A stretch of 64,000 nt of DNA, taken from the IMG/VR virus record IMGVR_UViG_3300034170_000057. One strand, written 5' to 3'. Positions within the stretch are counted from its first letter, which is position 1; each line of letters begins with the position of its first letter. The DNA comes from a virus (lineage: Duplodnaviria > Caudoviricetes). Below the pieces are notes generated by a model that was given only the letters and a program-made list of their open reading frames with translations, made no database searches and was not told the DNA's origin. The translations under genes and the position numbers were made by a program. Below are positions 15,526 to 63,000 of this stretch, piece by piece.

Positions 15526-16575
15526 GTGGCAAACCCTTCGTTCGAAGCAGTATTCACCAGCGACTGGCATTTGACCGGCCTGAATAAACATTTCTCGGAT
15601 GGCGATGATCGCATTCTGGCCGAGGGTGAAAAGATCCTGCAATACGCGCTGAATAACGGTATTAAATACGTGATTATTCCGGGTGATATTTCTGATCACC
15701 CGAACCTGCCATTCGACACATACACCAAACTGTTTAACCTGCTCTACAAATACGACAAGCTGCTGACCATCATTTACGTGGCAGGCAATCACGACTTCGA
15801 AAACGTCGAGAAAATGTCGATGAATTTCATGTACCGTTTGAGCAAGACGCGTGCATTCAAAAACCTCAAAATCGTATTGAAACCGGAACGCGTGGAAATC
15901 GAAGGCGTGCCGGTAAACCTGTTGCCGTACCCGTGCCTGAAAACCCTGTCGAAAAAACAAGGTGCATTGAACGTCGCGCACGTGGAATACACCGGGGCAG
16001 TTGGTGACAATGGTCGCACGCTGAAAACAAAGCATGAATTGAAATCACATAAAAACGATTTCACAGTTAGCGGGCATATCCACCAATACCAGTACATGAA
16101 AGCGAAGCGCGCTCTGTATTGCGGGAATCCATTCCAAAAGAACTTTGGTGAGGCATTGCCTAAAGGGTTCGTGCATTTGCGTGCCACGTTGAACGGCGAC
16201 CGGATGGATGTGGAGCATAAATTCGTGGAGAATAAACCGGGGTTTACCCTGATTAATCTCCCTATTAATGACCTCAACGACCTGAAGAAACTGAAGCACG
16301 ATTCGAATATTCGTTACAAGCTGCATTTCGATCCTGAAGTGCCAATGCCTGCGGATCTAATGCTGCAATACCCGAACATTACCGGTGGTATTCATTGGTC
16401 TGGCGGTAAAGCAATTGATAGCTCGGAAATAGAAACAATTAAAATTGAACGGGCAGATATTGATCCTGAATTCGGATTGGAAGCATTCCTCGGTGCGGAA
16501 GGTTTGGATTTAAAAGAAATCAAATGGACGATGAAAGAGGTTAAGGCAGCCAAAAATGTCCTTGGGTTTTCCTGA
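15526..16575 (+). CDS. SbcD/Mre11/T4 gp47-like metallophosphoesterase nuclease subunit
   Basis: Motifs FTSDWHL, PGDISD, AGNHD, VAH, SGHIH; GTG start after AGGAA. Confidence 0.9.
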   Translation: MANPSFEAVFTSDWHLTGLNKHFSDGDDRILAEGEKILQYALNNGIKYVIIPGDISDHPNLPFDTYTKLFNLLYKYDKLLTIIYVAGNHDFENVEKMSMNFMYRLSKTRAFKNLKIVLKPERVEIEGVPVNLLPYPCLKTLSKKQGALNVAHVEYTGAVGDNGRTLKTKHELKSHKNDFTVSGHIHQYQYMKAKRALYCGNPFQKNFGEALPKGFVHLRATLNGDRMDVEHKFVENKPGFTLINLPINDLNDLKKLKHDSNIRYKLHFDPEVPMPADLMLQYPNITGGIHWSGGKAIDSSEIETIKIERADIDPEFGLEAFLGAEGLDLKEIKWTMKEVKAAKNVLGFS

Positions 16576-16609: not shown

Positions 16610-16625
16610 CTAATTTATTATTAGT
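16610..16625 (+). promoter_or_regulatory. motif B CTAATTTATTATTAGT upstream of the histone-like gene
   Basis: Intergenic; near-identical copy at 58491. Confidence 0.55.
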
Positions 16626-16687
16626 TGGTACGCATCGTGGCGCTACGATTAAGCCAACTACACACACCTTAATCGAGGAATGCAACG

Positions 16688-18133
16688 ATGGTAATGAAAG
16701 CCGTCCAAAAGAAAAAGGGCGCGGTGGCCATTAAAGAGGCCAAAAAAGGTAAAGTTTACCGCCGCAAAAACAAATCCAAGCTGAATAAGCTGGCCAAGCA
16801 GCGCTACAAGACCATGACCCCAGCTGAAAAGCTGAAGTTTCATGCGCGTCAGGTATTCACCAAGGCCATGCGCCACGGTGCTACCGAAGCTGAAGCGAAA
16901 AAAGTCGTAATGGCTTGGAAAAAACGCCGCAAGCACCGCGCCGCTGGTACTCATGCTGCTGGTCAAAAGCGTGAAGTGACTGCTGCACAGCGTCAAATCC
17001 GTGAACAAATCCGGAAAAAATCGCTGGGCCTGCAAAGCGCCCACCAGAAAGCACTGAGCAAAATTCGTTCTGCCAAAGTGCCGCCTGCAAAACGCGCCGC
17101 GATGCGTCAAGCCGAAAAAGCCAGCTACGCCAACGCACGTAAAACCCTCGCGGGCGAACGTACCAAGGCCGCTGCCAGCCACCGTCAGGCCATGAAGAAA
17201 ATCAAACCGAAGGGTAAATTCTCCCTGAAGTCCCTGATCAGTAACTACAAGGCCAAGCCGATCAGCACCCAAGGTAAACGTCTGGTTGATATCGGCGCGA
17301 AAGCGGCGAAAGACGGCGTTGCACGAATCGCTGCAAAGCATTTCGGTAATGCAAAACCAGCAGCCAAAAAAGCAGCTGGCGGCGTTACCAAAAAAGCGCC
17401 TAAAAGCGCTGCTGCCTCACCGGCTGCTGCACCGAAGAAAGTAGGCCGTCCGAAAAACGTCGGCACTACCCTTGGCGAAGGTGAAAAACCAACCCGCCGC
17501 GCACTCGGTAGCCCTACCAAAGCAAAACCAGCCGCCGCTGCTCCAGCAGCTGAAAAGCGTAAACCGGGCCGTCCGAAGAAAGTAGCCGCCGCTCCGGCTG
17601 CCGCTGCTGAAGCGAAACCGAAACGCAAATACACCAAGAAAGCCGTAGCCGCTCCAGCCGCTGCCCCAGCAGCTGAGAAACGCAAACCGGGCCGTCCGAA
17701 GAAAGTAGCTGCTGCCGCTCCGGCTGCCGCACCTGCCGCCGAAAAACGCAAACCGGGTCGTCCGAAAAAAGTCGCCGCTGAAGCTGCAAAACCTGCTGCT
17801 AAAGCTCCGGCCAAAAAGCCGACTAAATCCGCTGCTGCCAAGAAACCTGCCGCTGCCGCCCCAGCCGCTGAAAAGCGTAAACCGGGCCGTCCGAAAAAGG
17901 TAACTGAAGCCGCTGCCCCAGCAGCTGAGAAACGCAAACCGGGCCGTCCGAAGAAAGTAGCCGCTGCCGCTCCGGCTGCAAAGCCAGCAGCAAAAGCCAA
18001 AGCCAAGGAAAAAGCAGCAGCCAAAGCTCCGGCCAAAAAGCCGACTAAAGCCGCTGCCGCTAAACCGGCTGCCAAAGCAGCACCTGCCAAGAAAAAAGTT
18101 GGTGGCGCCGTTCCAAAAGCTAAATTCGGTTAA
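16688..18133 (+). CDS. histone-H1/HMGA-like basic DNA-binding protein with repeated AT-hook-like motifs (481 aa)
   Basis: Extremely K/A/P/R-rich; five EKRKPGRPKKV, one KVGRPK and one KRKYTKK; GAGGA SD; own promoter-like site and terminator. Confidence 0.8.
   Translation: MVMKAVQKKKGAVAIKEAKKGKVYRRKNKSKLNKLAKQRYKTMTPAEKLKFHARQVFTKAMRHGATEAEAKKVVMAWKKRRKHRAAGTHAAGQKREVTAAQRQIREQIRKKSLGLQSAHQKALSKIRSAKVPPAKRAAMRQAEKASYANARKTLAGERTKAAASHRQAMKKIKPKGKFSLKSLISNYKAKPISTQGKRLVDIGAKAAKDGVARIAAKHFGNAKPAAKKAAGGVTKKAPKSAAASPAAAPKKVGRPKNVGTTLGEGEKPTRRALGSPTKAKPAAAAPAAEKRKPGRPKKVAAAPAAAAEAKPKRKYTKKAVAAPAAAPAAEKRKPGRPKKVAAAAPAAAPAAEKRKPGRPKKVAAEAAKPAAKAPAKKPTKSAAAKKPAAAAPAAEKRKPGRPKKVTEAAAPAAEKRKPGRPKKVAAAAPAAKPAAKAKAKEKAAAKAPAKKPTKAAAAKPAAKAAPAKKKVGGAVPKAKFG
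17552..17959 (+). repeat. coding tandem repeat: five copies of gaaaagcgtaaaccgggccgtccgaagaaagt-like units with Ala/Pro spacers
   Basis: Copies differ mostly at synonymous positions, consistent with selection at the protein level. Confidence 0.85.
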
Positions 18134-18158
18134 TAGCTGAATAGGCTTTGATTCAAAC

Positions 18159-18198
18159 AAAAAACCCGTCTCTCTGTAAAAGGAGTGGCGGGTTTTTT
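18159..18198 (+). terminator. intrinsic terminator, possibly bidirectional
   Basis: AAAAAACCCGTC...GGCGGGTTTTTT. Confidence 0.8.
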
Positions 18199-18211
18199 GC
18201 TATCTAGACCA

Positions 18212-18219
18212 TAATTTAA
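18212..18219 (+). promoter_or_regulatory. motif B TAATTTAA
   Basis: Directly after a terminator, before the structural block at 18251. Confidence 0.55.
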
Positions 18220-18250: not shown

Positions 18251-19249
18251 TTGCAAATACAATCAAAATACATTGATGATAATCCAAATATCATTGATTT
18301 GAAAAATGCCCGAAACGCAAACGAAGTCGTAACGGTATTAACCCGGATCAACACGGCTACCAGCGTTTTGGTTTCGAAATTCAACCAAAAGAAGCTGTCA
18401 TTTCTCAAAGTATCCGATGGTGTGGAAGCTCTGACATTCTGCGTCGATTCATTGGTAGAACTCCGTTGTGCGCGTGCTGCTGCGCAAGAGTTTAGCGATT
18501 CGAAACGTGATCGCTGTTTCCAAATGATTGCCGCACAAATGCAGACCATTCGCGCTTTCCAGAAAACTCTTATGGATTTGATTGACAGTGTTTGTTCTCC
18601 GCGAATGGACGAACACCTGAACTACCTTTCGGAAATTGTTTATAGTTTCCTATCAAAGATCAGCCACACCACGCAGCTGCATATTCGTTTACCGGGCTAT
18701 CAAATGATTTGCTTCCGAACCGATAGCGGCATACAGGATAAAAACGGATTCGTTAGCGGGCCAGTCACCGTCAAAGTGACGTTGTACGGCGGGCAGTACC
18801 GCATTGCAATCCCGGATACCCCGTTTGTATTGTCCGAAGAAACCGCCGTCGATACGGCAACGGATGTGCAGACGTATATCAAGGGCAACCTTTCCGATTT
18901 CGAATACATCGACAAACCGGTGCCGAAAGACGACAAATTGCTCGCTTCCAAACTGGTGAAAAGCGTCGATGTAACTGACGACCGTCTTAACGTTGTGTTG
19001 AAACCGTTTGTGAAGCCGGAAGATATCAATAAGTTTCTGACGCAGGTTCTGCCGTATCTCAAGCGTGCGGTAGATTTGCCGAATACTGATATCATCCATC
19101 GCGTGTCGCAGTACGGAAACAATTTCATGATTTCCTTTATCGTAGGTAAGCGGAAAATCTACGATGTGCGATCCCTGAACAAGCTGACGAAACTGCTGAA
19201 CGTCGGCAAAACAGAAAAAGACAAACTCAACACAATCATGGAATCCTAA
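18251..19249 (+). CDS. putative virion structural protein, 332 aa (TTG start)
   Basis: ORF track; TAATTTAA site upstream; first gene of a co-directional block. Confidence 0.55.
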   Translation: MQIQSKYIDDNPNIIDLKNARNANEVVTVLTRINTATSVLVSKFNQKKLSFLKVSDGVEALTFCVDSLVELRCARAAAQEFSDSKRDRCFQMIAAQMQTIRAFQKTLMDLIDSVCSPRMDEHLNYLSEIVYSFLSKISHTTQLHIRLPGYQMICFRTDSGIQDKNGFVSGPVTVKVTLYGGQYRIAIPDTPFVLSEETAVDTATDVQTYIKGNLSDFEYIDKPVPKDDKLLASKLVKSVDVTDDRLNVVLKPFVKPEDINKFLTQVLPYLKRAVDLPNTDIIHRVSQYGNNFMISFIVGKRKIYDVRSLNKLTKLLNVGKTEKDKLNTIMES

Positions 19250-20434: not shown

Positions 20435-21340
20435 TTGCACTACTTCATTTCCAAGCCGTTAGATTTTCGTCTTTCGGCTTGGCCCCGTGGCGGCGATAAC
20501 TACATCACCACCTATAACACCGACCGTTATTTGATCGACATTAAAATGGTTCTCGATTATGTCGAAGAATCATTGAAGAAAACGCCGATGGCGTTCATCT
20601 TTAAAACCACGTTTACGCTGGTGAACATCTGGTCGATGTACAACAACATGAGCGTGGGGCTTGTCGATATGCCCCCGAAAGAAGTCCGGCGCACAGGCCT
20701 TGTGTTTACGTTCGCCCGGACGCTACGGAATAATGCTGACGTTCCAACCGTCAAGCACCAAACGTGGATGCGTGGCTATACCGCCATATGGGGAACAGCC
20801 GATAATCAGTCCGCAGATTTCATTAGCATTTCGATTCCGTTGAACATTCTGACACGTGCGCGCATGCAGCAAATGATGGAACGTGATCAGCGGTATTTGT
20901 ACGACATTGCAGGCGGATACACGAAAGCGATTATCCGGCAAAAGATCGGTTACACCGGTGGCGTTGAATCCACTGCTGGAAAACTCCTTTACCAGAATAT
21001 CCCAAGAGCCATGTTCTATACGGCCATGGATGATTGGAAATATGTTCTGGATTTCTGGAAGCGTATGCCCGATTTGTTGCATGTAGAATGGACGCCGAAA
21101 TTCATTGAATATTACGTCCGCTTTATTGCACCGAATCTGCCAATGCGCCGACGCAGTAAGTATTATGCACAGTACGAAGGTGAAGCGCAGGACAGCATTC
21201 GCGAATTCATTCTGCGTTTTGTGCAAAACCAAATCGAACCCGAGGAAGCTGGCCTAGCCGCGCTGCTGCCTTTGGAAGAATCCGCATTGCAAGATATTGA
21301 GACGCTAGTTGTTCAACTGTCTCAAGGGGTTGTGGAATGA
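20435..21340 (+). CDS. hypothetical protein, 301 aa (TTG start directly after the upstream stop)
   Basis: ORF track. Confidence 0.55.
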   Translation: MHYFISKPLDFRLSAWPRGGDNYITTYNTDRYLIDIKMVLDYVEESLKKTPMAFIFKTTFTLVNIWSMYNNMSVGLVDMPPKEVRRTGLVFTFARTLRNNADVPTVKHQTWMRGYTAIWGTADNQSADFISISIPLNILTRARMQQMMERDQRYLYDIAGGYTKAIIRQKIGYTGGVESTAGKLLYQNIPRAMFYTAMDDWKYVLDFWKRMPDLLHVEWTPKFIEYYVRFIAPNLPMRRRSKYYAQYEGEAQDSIREFILRFVQNQIEPEEAGLAALLPLEESALQDIETLVVQLSQGVVE

Positions 21341-58490: not shown

Positions 58491-58506
58491 CTAATTTATT
58501 AATAGT
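58491..58506 (+). promoter_or_regulatory. motif B CTAATTTATTAATAGT
   Basis: 15/16 match to 16610; precedes the sRNA candidate. Confidence 0.5.
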
Positions 58507-58589
58507 CTACGAGGGTAGGCTTGTTGTATCTCTTTATGTCACAGCATTTTAGCCCATACAGGTTCCCCCGCCTGTGTGGGCTTTTTTTT
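58500..58589 (+). ncRNA. candidate ~90-nt small RNA
   Basis: Promoter-like CTAATTTATTAATAGT (15/16 identical to the site before the histone-like gene), 5' hairpin GTCTAC-GAGG-GTAGGC, U-rich linker, strong terminator; no credible ORF. Confidence 0.45.
58551..58589 (+). terminator. intrinsic terminator
   Basis: AGCCCATACAGG-TTCCCCCG-CCTGTGTGGGCT-TTTTTTT. Confidence 0.9.
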
Positions 58590-58610
58590 GTCCAAAATAA
58601 CTGTTTGCCC

Positions 58611-59074: not shown

Positions 59075-61030
59075 ATGTCGAATCGAAAATCGCGCCTGCG
59101 CGGCATCGTCGTTATGGCTGATAACCAAGAGCAAGCAATGGAGCTTTTCAGCGCTGTCGCTTCCGGCACCTATCGCGTTATGGAAAGTAAAAGCGGCGAT
59201 TTTGCCGTTGCTACTGCCATTTCGGATATGCAACTTCTGAACCCGATTGACGGCGAAGAAATGGTTGCAGTTGCGGATGCGGATAAGCATGAAATGGTGG
59301 CTGTAGCCTCGAATGCTGGTGAGGATATGGACGCATTCTATCAAGCCTGCTCTAGCGGTTGCGGCGCACACGTTATTACTGACAGTCTTGAACTGTTGGA
59401 TAAATGCCCAGCTTGCGCTTCCGACCTCCCAAAAATGGAAGACGCTGACTTGAAAACGAACTCTCAACCAAAAGAATTGCTGCTCGCCGTAGCAACTGAT
59501 CGCGTTTCTGCTGTTGAAGCATTCCGCGCTCTGGCCTCTGGCGAATGCGAGACTTTCGCCGCTAAATGCGACGACGTGATGGTGATTTCGAACCAACCAA
59601 TCAACTTCGATATTTACAAAAATATCCCAGCTGTTGCGGTTGCCGAATACACCCCACAACTGGCCGTGGCATCCAGCGCCACCGAAGACGGCAAATTGAA
59701 GGTGCATTACCTGACCACCGCTAGCGATAGCGGCCAAGAAATGCACATCATCGCCAGCAATCCCTCCCCGATTTTCTGCCCTGTTACCAACATGGGCCTC
59801 GTTGATCCGGAAGACGAAATGAGCGCAGAGCAAAAAGCTACTGCAAGCGCTGATTTCCTCGGCACTGCTGCCAAGTGCAAAGCCTCTGACGAAGAGGAAG
59901 AAGAGGACGAAGACGAAGACGAAGACGAAGACTTCGACGACGAAGACGAAGAGGAAGAAGACAGCGAAGAGGAAGAAGAGGAAGACGAAGACGACAACGA
60001 AGAAGAGGAAGAAGATGACGACGATCTTTCCCTCGGTCTGGCTGCCTCGAAAAAAGGCAAAAAGAAAAAAGGCGGCGTAAAGCGCAAGGTAAAACCTGAA
60101 ATGGCTACCGCAAACGCACAAACCGACGCAATCGTACCGGCTGCCGAACAGGCCCCGGCTGTTGCTGTCGCAACCGAACAAACCGAAGCAGAACAAGCCG
60201 CAGCACCAGTTGTTGCCGCTGTTGTTGAAACCACGGCTCCGGTCGAAGTTTCCGCTTCTTTCGTTTCCATCGCCAGCGCCGAAATGAAAGAAAATTCTGT
60301 TGATGTTAATTATGTAGGTAACGTCCAAGGCGAACCTACGTGGATGGCATTTCACAACGGTATTCCTTTCGCGAAAGCAATTGCTTCGGCTTCCGAAAAC
60401 CCTGCCACTTTTGCTGATCCAGCAATTGGCCGTGCTTTCAAAGCAATCGCCAGTGAACAAGGCGTGCATGCTGCGTTGGAACAACTTCGTTTCGAAGAAA
60501 TCAAACCGGTTCTGCAAATCGAACAGGTTGTTGCGGAACAAATTCAATCGCAAGTTACCGAACAAGGTAACGTGCTGGCTGAAGCAACCGCACGCGATAA
60601 ATCGGAACTCGCAACCCGCTACGAATCCGCTCTGGCGACGGCTGCACACGGTATTAACACCGGTTATTTCCGTGACATGAGCAACCCGATTGTGACCGCG
60701 CTCGCTTCCTCTTTGGAAGACGTAGGTCTGGCCGGTGCTGCTGAACTTCTGCAACGTGCTTTCATTGATCACTCGCCGGAATACCATGCCAGCATCTTGG
60801 CAAAGGCCGCTGAAATCATGCAGTACGAGCAAGTGGTTCAAAACCAGATGGCAACCGCCGTAACGCAAATCGAACCGAAAAACGTGGCTACCGCGTCCTC
60901 GCTTTCGATGGGCCGAGCGGTTCAACGTCCTGCGCAAGTGCAACAAGAAAACGTGATCGCGACCGCTTCGGCTGAGCAACCACAAAACACCGACTTCCAA
61001 AGCAAGCTGAAAGGCTTGAAACTGTTCTAA
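59075..61030 (+). CDS. putative prohead scaffold/core protein, 651 aa
   Basis: Between protease and capsid genes; Ala-rich, ~35-residue D/E block followed by KKGKKKKGG, many A[VT]AS motifs, amphipathic C-terminus FQSKLKGLKLF. Confidence 0.6.
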   Translation: MSNRKSRLRGIVVMADNQEQAMELFSAVASGTYRVMESKSGDFAVATAISDMQLLNPIDGEEMVAVADADKHEMVAVASNAGEDMDAFYQACSSGCGAHVITDSLELLDKCPACASDLPKMEDADLKTNSQPKELLLAVATDRVSAVEAFRALASGECETFAAKCDDVMVISNQPINFDIYKNIPAVAVAEYTPQLAVASSATEDGKLKVHYLTTASDSGQEMHIIASNPSPIFCPVTNMGLVDPEDEMSAEQKATASADFLGTAAKCKASDEEEEEDEDEDEDEDFDDEDEEEEDSEEEEEEDEDDNEEEEEDDDDLSLGLAASKKGKKKKGGVKRKVKPEMATANAQTDAIVPAAEQAPAVAVATEQTEAEQAAAPVVAAVVETTAPVEVSASFVSIASAEMKENSVDVNYVGNVQGEPTWMAFHNGIPFAKAIASASENPATFADPAIGRAFKAIASEQGVHAALEQLRFEEIKPVLQIEQVVAEQIQSQVTEQGNVLAEATARDKSELATRYESALATAAHGINTGYFRDMSNPIVTALASSLEDVGLAGAAELLQRAFIDHSPEYHASILAKAAEIMQYEQVVQNQMATAVTQIEPKNVATASSLSMGRAVQRPAQVQQENVIATASAEQPQNTDFQSKLKGLKLF

Positions 61031-61783: not shown

Positions 61784-61819
61784 TCGCGGATCATTCGAAA
61801 ATCTTTGGAGATACAAAAC

Positions 61820-62920: not shown

Positions 62921-63000
62921 TTAATCTCCGCGTCGGTTGAAGTGAAAAGGAGCGCCCCTTTAAATTTCAACCGGCGTTAGATTCTTCTGGAGATTATACG

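Follow-up and report, generated by a model that had tools for sequence, protein, structure and literature searches.

A basic protein with AT-hook-like repeats in a Lu11-like jumbo Pseudomonas phage, a probable DNA-coating protein of the phage head

The gene described here lies at positions 16688-18133 (+ strand) of a 64,000-nucleotide (nt) stretch of viral DNA, the IMG/VR record IMGVR_UViG_3300034170_000057, which is called the window below. This DNA belongs to a Lu11-like jumbo Pseudomonas phage that is, at the DNA level, a distant relative of the phages Lu11 and HRDY3. We propose, with a probability of about 0.6, that the 481-amino-acid (aa) product of the gene (P0001) is made late and in very large amounts and coats DNA, and that it is most likely packaged with the genome as an internal head protein. 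The DNA-coating role is proposed because of the extreme charge of the protein, its tail rich in lysine (K), alanine (A) and proline (P), the selection acting on its hook motifs, a homologue present in virions of phage PaBG, the class of its promoter and its strict synteny. Packaging in the Lu11-like phage of the window itself is something we infer from the PaBG homologue, gp191.

PaBG gp191 (PaBG_00191; AGS82067.1; UniProt S5VV97) is a protein of 332 aa encoded directly after PaBG sbcD, and was reached through BFVD combined with synteny. The BFVD search returned Lu11 gp110 (E 9e-16) and the PaBG protein (Foldseek E 3.5e-4), the rows named 'internal virion protein' being weak (E of at least 0.4), and comparison of PaBG_00191 with the family profile gave a hhalign probability of 93.7% (E 2e-7, 165 columns). 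The PaBG protein resembles that of the window in its homologous N-terminal domain (N-domain) and its Lys/Ala-rich basic tail, and its locus in the slot after sbcD and in having the same TAATTT box, GGCGCT leader hairpin and terminator. In caesium chloride (CsCl)-purified PaBG virions, gp191 ('Unknown', 35,272.92 Da) is one of the 14 Coomassie-visible proteins (PMC7412058, Table 1). Elsewhere the same paper labels sbcD 'gene 191' (PMC7412058). We computed masses of 35,272.47 Da for PaBG_00191 and of 40,444 Da for sbcD (PaBG_00190) and, since the former matches the published mass, the virion protein gp191 is the family homologue and not sbcD. On this evidence the protein can be read no longer just as a DNA-binding protein of some kind but as a probable internal head protein that is packaged with DNA. 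An initial annotation, made by a model from the nucleotide sequence alone, had suggested among other roles a condensation of DNA for packaging, and it is this branch which gains support.

Lysine, alanine, proline and arginine (R) account for 22%, 28%, 9% and 7% of the 481 residues (66% together), and the protein has an isoelectric point (pI) of 11.6 and a net charge of +117. The region from aa 221 to 481 (17348-18130, + strand) is a disordered Ala/Lys/Pro polycationic tail without predicted secondary structure (predicted local distance difference test, pLDDT, ~40), which contains 35% A, 23% K, 14% P and no Asp, and whose C-terminus is basic. It holds five identical AEKRKPGRPKKV units, one KKVGRPKNV and one KPKRKYTKK; the initial annotation, which reported a K/A/P/R-dominated open reading frame (ORF) of 481 aa with five tandem hook units, one KVGRPK and one KRKYTKK, was therefore accurate on all these points. 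All lie on the + strand in the following order: the degenerate hook KKVGRPKNV (aa 250-258, 17435-17461), hook unit 1 (aa 288-299, 17549-17584), the basic motif KPKRKYTKK (aa 310-318, 17615-17641), hook unit 2 (aa 329-340, 17672-17707), hook unit 3 (aa 351-362, 17738-17773), hook unit 4 (aa 394-405, 17867-17902) and hook unit 5 (aa 413-424, 17924-17959). The tail contains six GRP tripeptides against 0.12 expected, with a maximum of 3 in 10,000 composition-preserving shuffles; all six cores are flanked by Lys/Arg, and five of them stand within KRKPGRPKK. Peptide identity among the five hook units extends over 16 residues (AAPAAEKRKPGRPKKV). Their DNA varies at 8 positions, every one of which is a third codon position, and because variation is confined in this way the hook peptide is maintained by selection and is not the mere product of a fresh duplication.

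Whether these units can be called AT-hooks depends on the family member considered. The core of an AT-hook is Arg-Gly-Arg-Pro (PMC12430185). RGRP cores are present in the relatives HRDY3, P0005, P0017 and P0018. P0017, with six RGRP hooks, reaches 42.8 bits with the Pfam AT_hook model (cut-off 17.4; 6 matched stretches), and the single hooks of HRDY3 and P0005 come near this cut-off. Several relatives carry RGRPAGSKNKPK or KKRGRPAGSKNKPK, whose pattern equals that of the type-I hook of plant AHL proteins (RGRP then GSKNK, here as RGRPAGSKNK), and the RKY unit of the window protein resembles the plant AHL type-II pattern. Since the window protein has a PGRP core and fails the Pfam model while relatives pass it, the proper wording is 'AT-hook-like' for the window protein and 'AT-hook' for the family. 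Thus, of the 'HMGA-like' description in the initial annotation, a DNA-binding-type polycation with AT-hook-like motifs stands, and homology with HMGA does not. The protein shares with HMGA (AT-hook, PF02178) the Lys/Arg-flanked GRP core, the Pro/Ala-rich disorder and the multivalent array, but differs from these small, fully disordered proteins with three RGRP hooks by its PGRP core, its size of 481 aa, its large folded N-domain and the lack of an acidic C-terminal tail. The likeness to HMGA and AHL hooks is likely to be convergence, without sign of common descent.

The number and type of hooks vary strongly among relatives, from 0 to 7 GRP cores per family member; such variation in repeat number had been put forward as a check in the initial annotation. 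KRKPGRPKK-type units occur five times in the window protein, three times in Lu11, five times in P0013 and twice in P0029, whose N-domains are 55% (Lu11), 58% (P0013) and 44% (P0029) identical to that of the window. The nearest relatives of the window protein, with N-domains 84-92% identical, have no KRKPGRPKK-type units and carry RGRPAGxKNK and KKDGTPAKKRGRKPK units instead, and the KPKRKYTKK of the window recurs in P0019 and also in P0029 despite the 44% N-domain identity of the latter. Because the tail modules disagree in this way with the N-domain tree, the tails look like mosaics drawn from a shared pool of short basic modules. Module types common to distant members and missing in near-identical ones suggest an exchange of tail cassettes by recombination. 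Additional tail modules (GTRKSxxxxxW, MGPNDGPQISKNRLTRRRN and KAKRAYNKKPK) were noticed in metagenomic members (P0029, P0019 and P0013 vs P0005-P0010). The extreme C-terminus behaves differently: the tip KKKVGGAVPKAKFG (18089-18130, + strand; family consensus GGAVPKxxF(S/A/G)) has G473, A474 and K477 invariant in a 15-sequence alignment although the preceding tail is hypervariable. It may be a docking peptide; docking of the tip was not seen in the full-length AlphaFold2 model.

The conserved part of the protein is the basic N-domain (aa 1-220; 16688-17347, + strand), delimited from alignments and AlphaFold2 models. It contains an invariant motif, AMRHGATEAEAKK (aa 60-72), and a near-invariant ISxxGKRL (aa 192-199), and is modelled as an all-helical bundle which includes an 80-residue helical hairpin (aa 90-171), with a few isolated bridge residues only and no beta wing. 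The mean pLDDT is 82 for the N-domain alone and exceeds 90 for residues 11-170 in the full-length model, in agreement with the helical basic N-terminal ~200 aa of the initial annotation. This elongated hairpin, typical of scaffolding proteins, brings in a role in head assembly, in which the N-domain would build the prohead core, the prohead protease would cut the protein and fragments would remain in the mature head. The late-class promoter (see below) would suit such a role, and the spread of PaBG gp191 peptides over several gel bands was attributed by the authors to proteolysis (PMC7412058). The gene is, however, ~40 kb away from the head module with the protease-like gene and the major capsid protein (MCP) gene (59-63 kb), and no conserved cleavage motif is demonstrable. 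Scaffolds are moreover normally acidic or neutral, at odds with the pI and charge given above, so that we hold a scaffold or core role to be quite improbable and retain the reading as a DNA-coating protein.

A word-indexed search of 5.8 billion proteins gave 15 family members and an exhaustive profile search of 1.84 billion cluster representatives gave 13, ten of which at E <=1e-10. The family is thus very small and specific to one phage lineage, that of the Lu11/HRDY3/PaBG-like jumbo phages. Its members have a common architecture, with an N-domain of ~215 aa and behind it a basic Ala/Lys/Pro tail that is hypervariable and, in the closer members, ends in the tip GGAVPKxxF. Lu11 gp110 (AFH14642; 429 aa) and HRDY3 XDJ15192 (432 aa), both annotated 'hypothetical protein', are syntenic orthologues of the window protein with N-domain identities of 55-61%. 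They are like it in architecture and synteny and unlike it in hook type and number, Lu11 having three KRKPGRPKK-type units among six GRP cores and HRDY3 two RGRGRPK hooks. The upstream neighbour encodes an SbcD-like nuclease (15526-16575), and conserved genes of unknown function follow downstream toward the head-tail connector at 21337. The order sbcD, gap, basic-protein gene, gap and same downstream run was found in every contig showing both neighbours; the extension of the downstream genes into the head-tail-connector block is visible only where a contig reaches far enough. In the window the flanking gaps measure 112 nt before and 117 nt after the gene, and they are conserved as far as PaBG.

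The same slot after sbcD is occupied, in enterobacterial relatives, by a different, very basic and gap-flanked protein (Dickeya phage AD1_184, L004:4736-5425). About 55 records of Erwinia, Dickeya, Yersinia and Salmonella phages carry a protein of this AD1_184 type, which is composed of an N-terminal AKP-rich tail and a helical core. It was rejected as a homologue (hhalign probability <1%) and is a positional analogue only; it looks like a functional replacement.

The gene is predicted to form a monocistronic unit with its own box, leader hairpin and terminator. A promoter-like TAATTTA box is found at 16611-16617 (+ strand), 77 nt before the start codon, and a box precedes the orthologue in all 13 loci, PaBG included. 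The + strand of the window carries 8 copies of TAATTT[AT]; the - strand carries none, against ~9 expected from base composition, and this antisense absence implies selection against spurious copies. Six of the 8 boxes are located within the 6.5% of the window that is non-coding (P ~2e-6). One (18212-18218, + strand) belongs to the downstream gene 18251-19249 and marks the 3' boundary of the unit; others are found ahead of 22999, of the gene for the tail sheath (44426) and of the head module (58644/59075, upstream of the MCP gene at 61805). The dedicated promoter-like site announced by the initial annotation is therefore a conserved, strand-specific motif enriched in intergenic gaps, and the tie of this 'motif-B' promoter to the structural class is borne out by the same box before the tail sheath gene and the head module. 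By likeness to the TATAAATA of T4, the box would be a late/structural-class promoter.

The promoter class also bears on the possibility that the protein acts inside the cell only. Unpackaged, it would condense replicating phage DNA (as a condensate, a replication-factory scaffold or a packaging substrate) or else compact or silence the host nucleoid, and the PaBG virion signal would be carry-over on DNA. The DNA-binding-type anatomy fits such a function equally well; the gene is placed at the junction of the recombination/repair module (sbcC, sbcD) and a structural-type block with a head-tail connector, and the non-homologous basic protein in the enterobacterial slot suggests a general need for a polycation there. 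Host takeover factors are, however, usually early genes, and the box of this gene is common to the tail-sheath and head genes. In addition, PaBG gp191 is Coomassie-visible in CsCl-purified particles, beside bona fide structural proteins (PMC7412058). We consequently consider a purely intracellular role rather unlikely and prefer the packaged, DNA-coating protein.

Five nt past the box begins a two-tier 5' leader stem-loop (16622-16660, + strand) with an outer stem TAGTTGGT/GCCAACTA, an inner stem ATCGT/ACGAT and an apical loop GGCGCT (16639-16644). The loop is invariant in 11 of the 13 loci. The inner stem exists in four versions, all of which are paired (ATCGT/ACGAT, ATCGC/GCGAT, ACCTT/AAGGT and AAACGT/GCGTTT), and the outer stems of PaBG, L012 and L013 are unrelated in sequence yet complementary. 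The hairpin has no Rfam match. It is probably an mRNA stabiliser or a regulatory operator: its 5'-proximal position fits a stabiliser of the mRNA of a highly expressed gene, and its invariant loop also allows a protein-binding operator. The covarying stems and invariant loop, essentially unique to this gene in the window, suggest a specific RNA-protein contact, and the composition of this basic helical protein resembles that of ribosomal proteins; the protein could accordingly be conceived as an RNA or ribosome binder that acts on mRNA or rRNA and possibly represses its own mRNA through the GGCGCT hairpin. AT-hook/GRP motifs and K/A/P tails are however classically DNA ligands, the virion association of the PaBG homologue fits DNA better, and autoregulation is compatible with a DNA-coating protein and does not replace this explanation. 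An RNA-binding role thus appears very improbable. The only look-alike of the leader in the window is a - strand motif at 62935-62975, directly after the MCP stop codon (loop GGCGCT at 62951-62956, outer stem GGTTGAA/TTCAACC, inner stem AAAGG/CCTTT). By chance, ~0.3 such 5-bp hairpins are expected among the 39 GGCGCT sites, and this look-alike may or may not be related to the leader.

The unit is closed by an intrinsic terminator (AAAAAACCCGTC...GGCGGGTTTTTT; 18158-18199, + strand), already noted in the initial annotation, which is strong (-27.9 kcal/mol, z -4.8, none of 200 shuffles folding as well). Of the 11 loci with enough sequence past the stop codon, 10 have a stem-loop with a T-run behind it, and the stems vary in sequence and stay paired (PaBG GGCCCGAG.../...CTTGGGCC). 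At the other end, the ORF is confirmed by its orthologues: ATG 16688 is the conserved start codon in Lu11 and HRDY3, and it is preceded 8 nt upstream by a Shine-Dalgarno sequence GAGGA (16675-16679, + strand; TAATCGAGGAA kept in Lu11 and HRDY3). The public gene call for P0004 (479 aa) begins at the ATG two codons downstream of 16688. An out-of-frame mini-ORF of four codons (ATG CAA CGA TGG TAA; window 16680-16694) overlaps the start codon of the gene. Long reverse-strand ORFs over the gene (e.g. 17245-18090 and 17417-18160) were discarded as by-products of the repetitive GCN/AAR/CCG codons.

Several points weigh against a packaged, DNA-coating protein. Virion association is known only for PaBG gp191, which is ~28% identical to the window protein and has no GRP hooks, its tail being made of AKKAATKAAKP-type repeats, and a very basic protein could co-purify non-specifically with virions or DNA. 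The hook cores of the window protein are five PGRP and one VGRP, the full RGRP core being absent, and the Pfam AT_hook hidden Markov model gives no match to the protein or its segments even at E <=10; with one Arg fewer per hook, insertion into the minor groove is less certain. For the N-domain, no DNA-binding or capsid-targeting fold was recognised in PDB Foldseek, VIA-align or ESM-Atlas: Foldseek gave no PDB match at E <1, the wide VIA-align search gave generic helical hairpins only (Z <=10.8, under the noise level for helical models), and the Atlas gave template-modelling scores <=0.41 by shape and no usable match by features. Finally, no capsid-targeting or protease-site signal could be established. 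The 'A-A-E' before each hook was considered as a possible prohead-protease site, but its glutamate context is uninformative, being that expected from the A/K/P-rich composition of the tail, and the MCP N-terminus has no clear shared motif. As the virion-proven PaBG gp191 has none of the hooks, we regard them as accessory to a constant core formed by the N-domain and the polycationic tail.

The initial annotation also named histone H1 as a model. As in linker histone H1, the protein has a K/A/P-rich disordered polycationic C-terminal tail with a proposed role in DNA compaction; unlike H1/H5, it has no winged-helix domain, its N-domain is different and GRP hooks are added. Scanned whole and in halves against Pfam (E <=1), PHROGs and NCBIfam, the protein gave nothing useful, Linker_histone and Hc1 (PF07432) being without a Pfam match at E <=1 or any NCBIfam match, and no H1/H5 chain was among the N-domain fold-search rows, which carry little weight alone. 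Homology with H1 or HMGA is thus not retained, in view of the missing winged helix, acidic tail and Pfam match. The Chlamydia Hc1/Hc2 and Pseudomonas AlgP proteins have a similar polycationic tail, and the window protein does not match the Hc1 family. H1-like PF07432 genes have been described in 'moraphage' large phages, for which a 2025 paper speculates on genome compaction for packaging (PMC12619734).

The closest functional analogues would be T4 IPI/IPII/IPIII, the phiKZ inner-body proteins and adenovirus core proteins VII and mu. All of them are basic, enter the particle in many copies together with the genome and are often proteolytically processed, and the phage ones are ejected with the DNA. 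For the window protein no clear sequence or fold similarity to them and no PHROG match was found, and no capsid-targeting sequence was identified; AT-hook-type motifs are not known in the T4 internal, phiKZ inner-body or adenovirus core proteins. Details of the phiKZ inner-body proteins are available (PMC13282480).

A possible mechanism can be drawn from these elements. The conserved basic helical N-domain would serve for capsid incorporation and/or DNA binding, and the 260-aa disordered polycationic tail would neutralise phosphate charge, as the C-terminal tail of histone H1 does. The GRP hook units, five or six in number, may insert into the minor groove of A/T tracts, and this multivalent binding would be biased to the ~50%-GC phage genome over the GC-rich Pseudomonas chromosome. 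The window has one A/T tract of 6 bp or longer per 156 bp, a density that should be several-fold lower in a GC-rich Pseudomonas chromosome. By analogy with the T4 internal proteins and the phiKZ inner-body proteins, the protein would leave the capsid with the DNA and coat it at entry, and ejection with the DNA is plausible on these grounds.

An extended form of this mechanism, which we consider speculative and unlikely, is a co-injected 'phage chromatin'. The A/T tracts would already be covered in the capsid by hundreds of copies, which would stay on the entering DNA and there block AT-seeking xenogeneic silencers of the host (MvaT/MvaU) and nucleases; the GGCGCT leader would exert autogenous control, and co-circulating phages would swap hook cassettes in an arms race with the DNA-binding defences of the host. 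If true, such a co-injected coat would be a protein-coat answer to the problem which Chimalliviridae solve with a nucleus. Only in this speculative form do we retain the suggestion of the initial annotation that a protective nucleoid or condensate might be an alternative to the phiKZ-type nuclear shell.

More generally, jumbo phages that lack a phiKZ-type nucleus or inner body have to neutralise, organise and guard on entry 250-310 kb of DNA, and this family provides a concrete and abundant candidate for that task. It would be a bacterial-virus case of a eukaryote-style AT-hook array joined to an H1-like tail, and our literature searches on AT-hooks with jumbo phages or virions found no earlier description of such a phage protein. 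Its parts are of kinds already known (AT-hooks, H1-like tails, internal head proteins); what is new is a family with a novel conserved N-domain, a cassette-like hook array, a homologue known from virions and a dedicated regulatory leader. The high variability of the tail and its cassette-like build suggest that host DNA-binding defences exert selection on it, and late gene regulation in the Lu11/PaBG group can be approached through the invariant-loop hairpin and the TAATTTA box. Lu11, HRDY3 and PaBG are all cultured isolates, which makes the family experimentally tractable.

Two further observations concern the head module of the window. The gene at 59075-61030 (+ strand), just upstream of a virion structural protein gene and of the MCP gene, encodes a 651-aa product which matches phrog_20988 ('ATPase', E 1.6e-191) and, weakly, a head maturation protease PHROG (E 7e-4); this product, a candidate prohead protease, might have the AT-hook protein as a substrate. 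Just upstream of the same module, at 58492-58592 (+ strand), a TAATTTA box and, ~60 nt on, a strong terminator-like hairpin (CCCATACAGG...CCTGTGTGGGCTTTTTTTT) enclose no ORF, an arrangement that may correspond to a small RNA.

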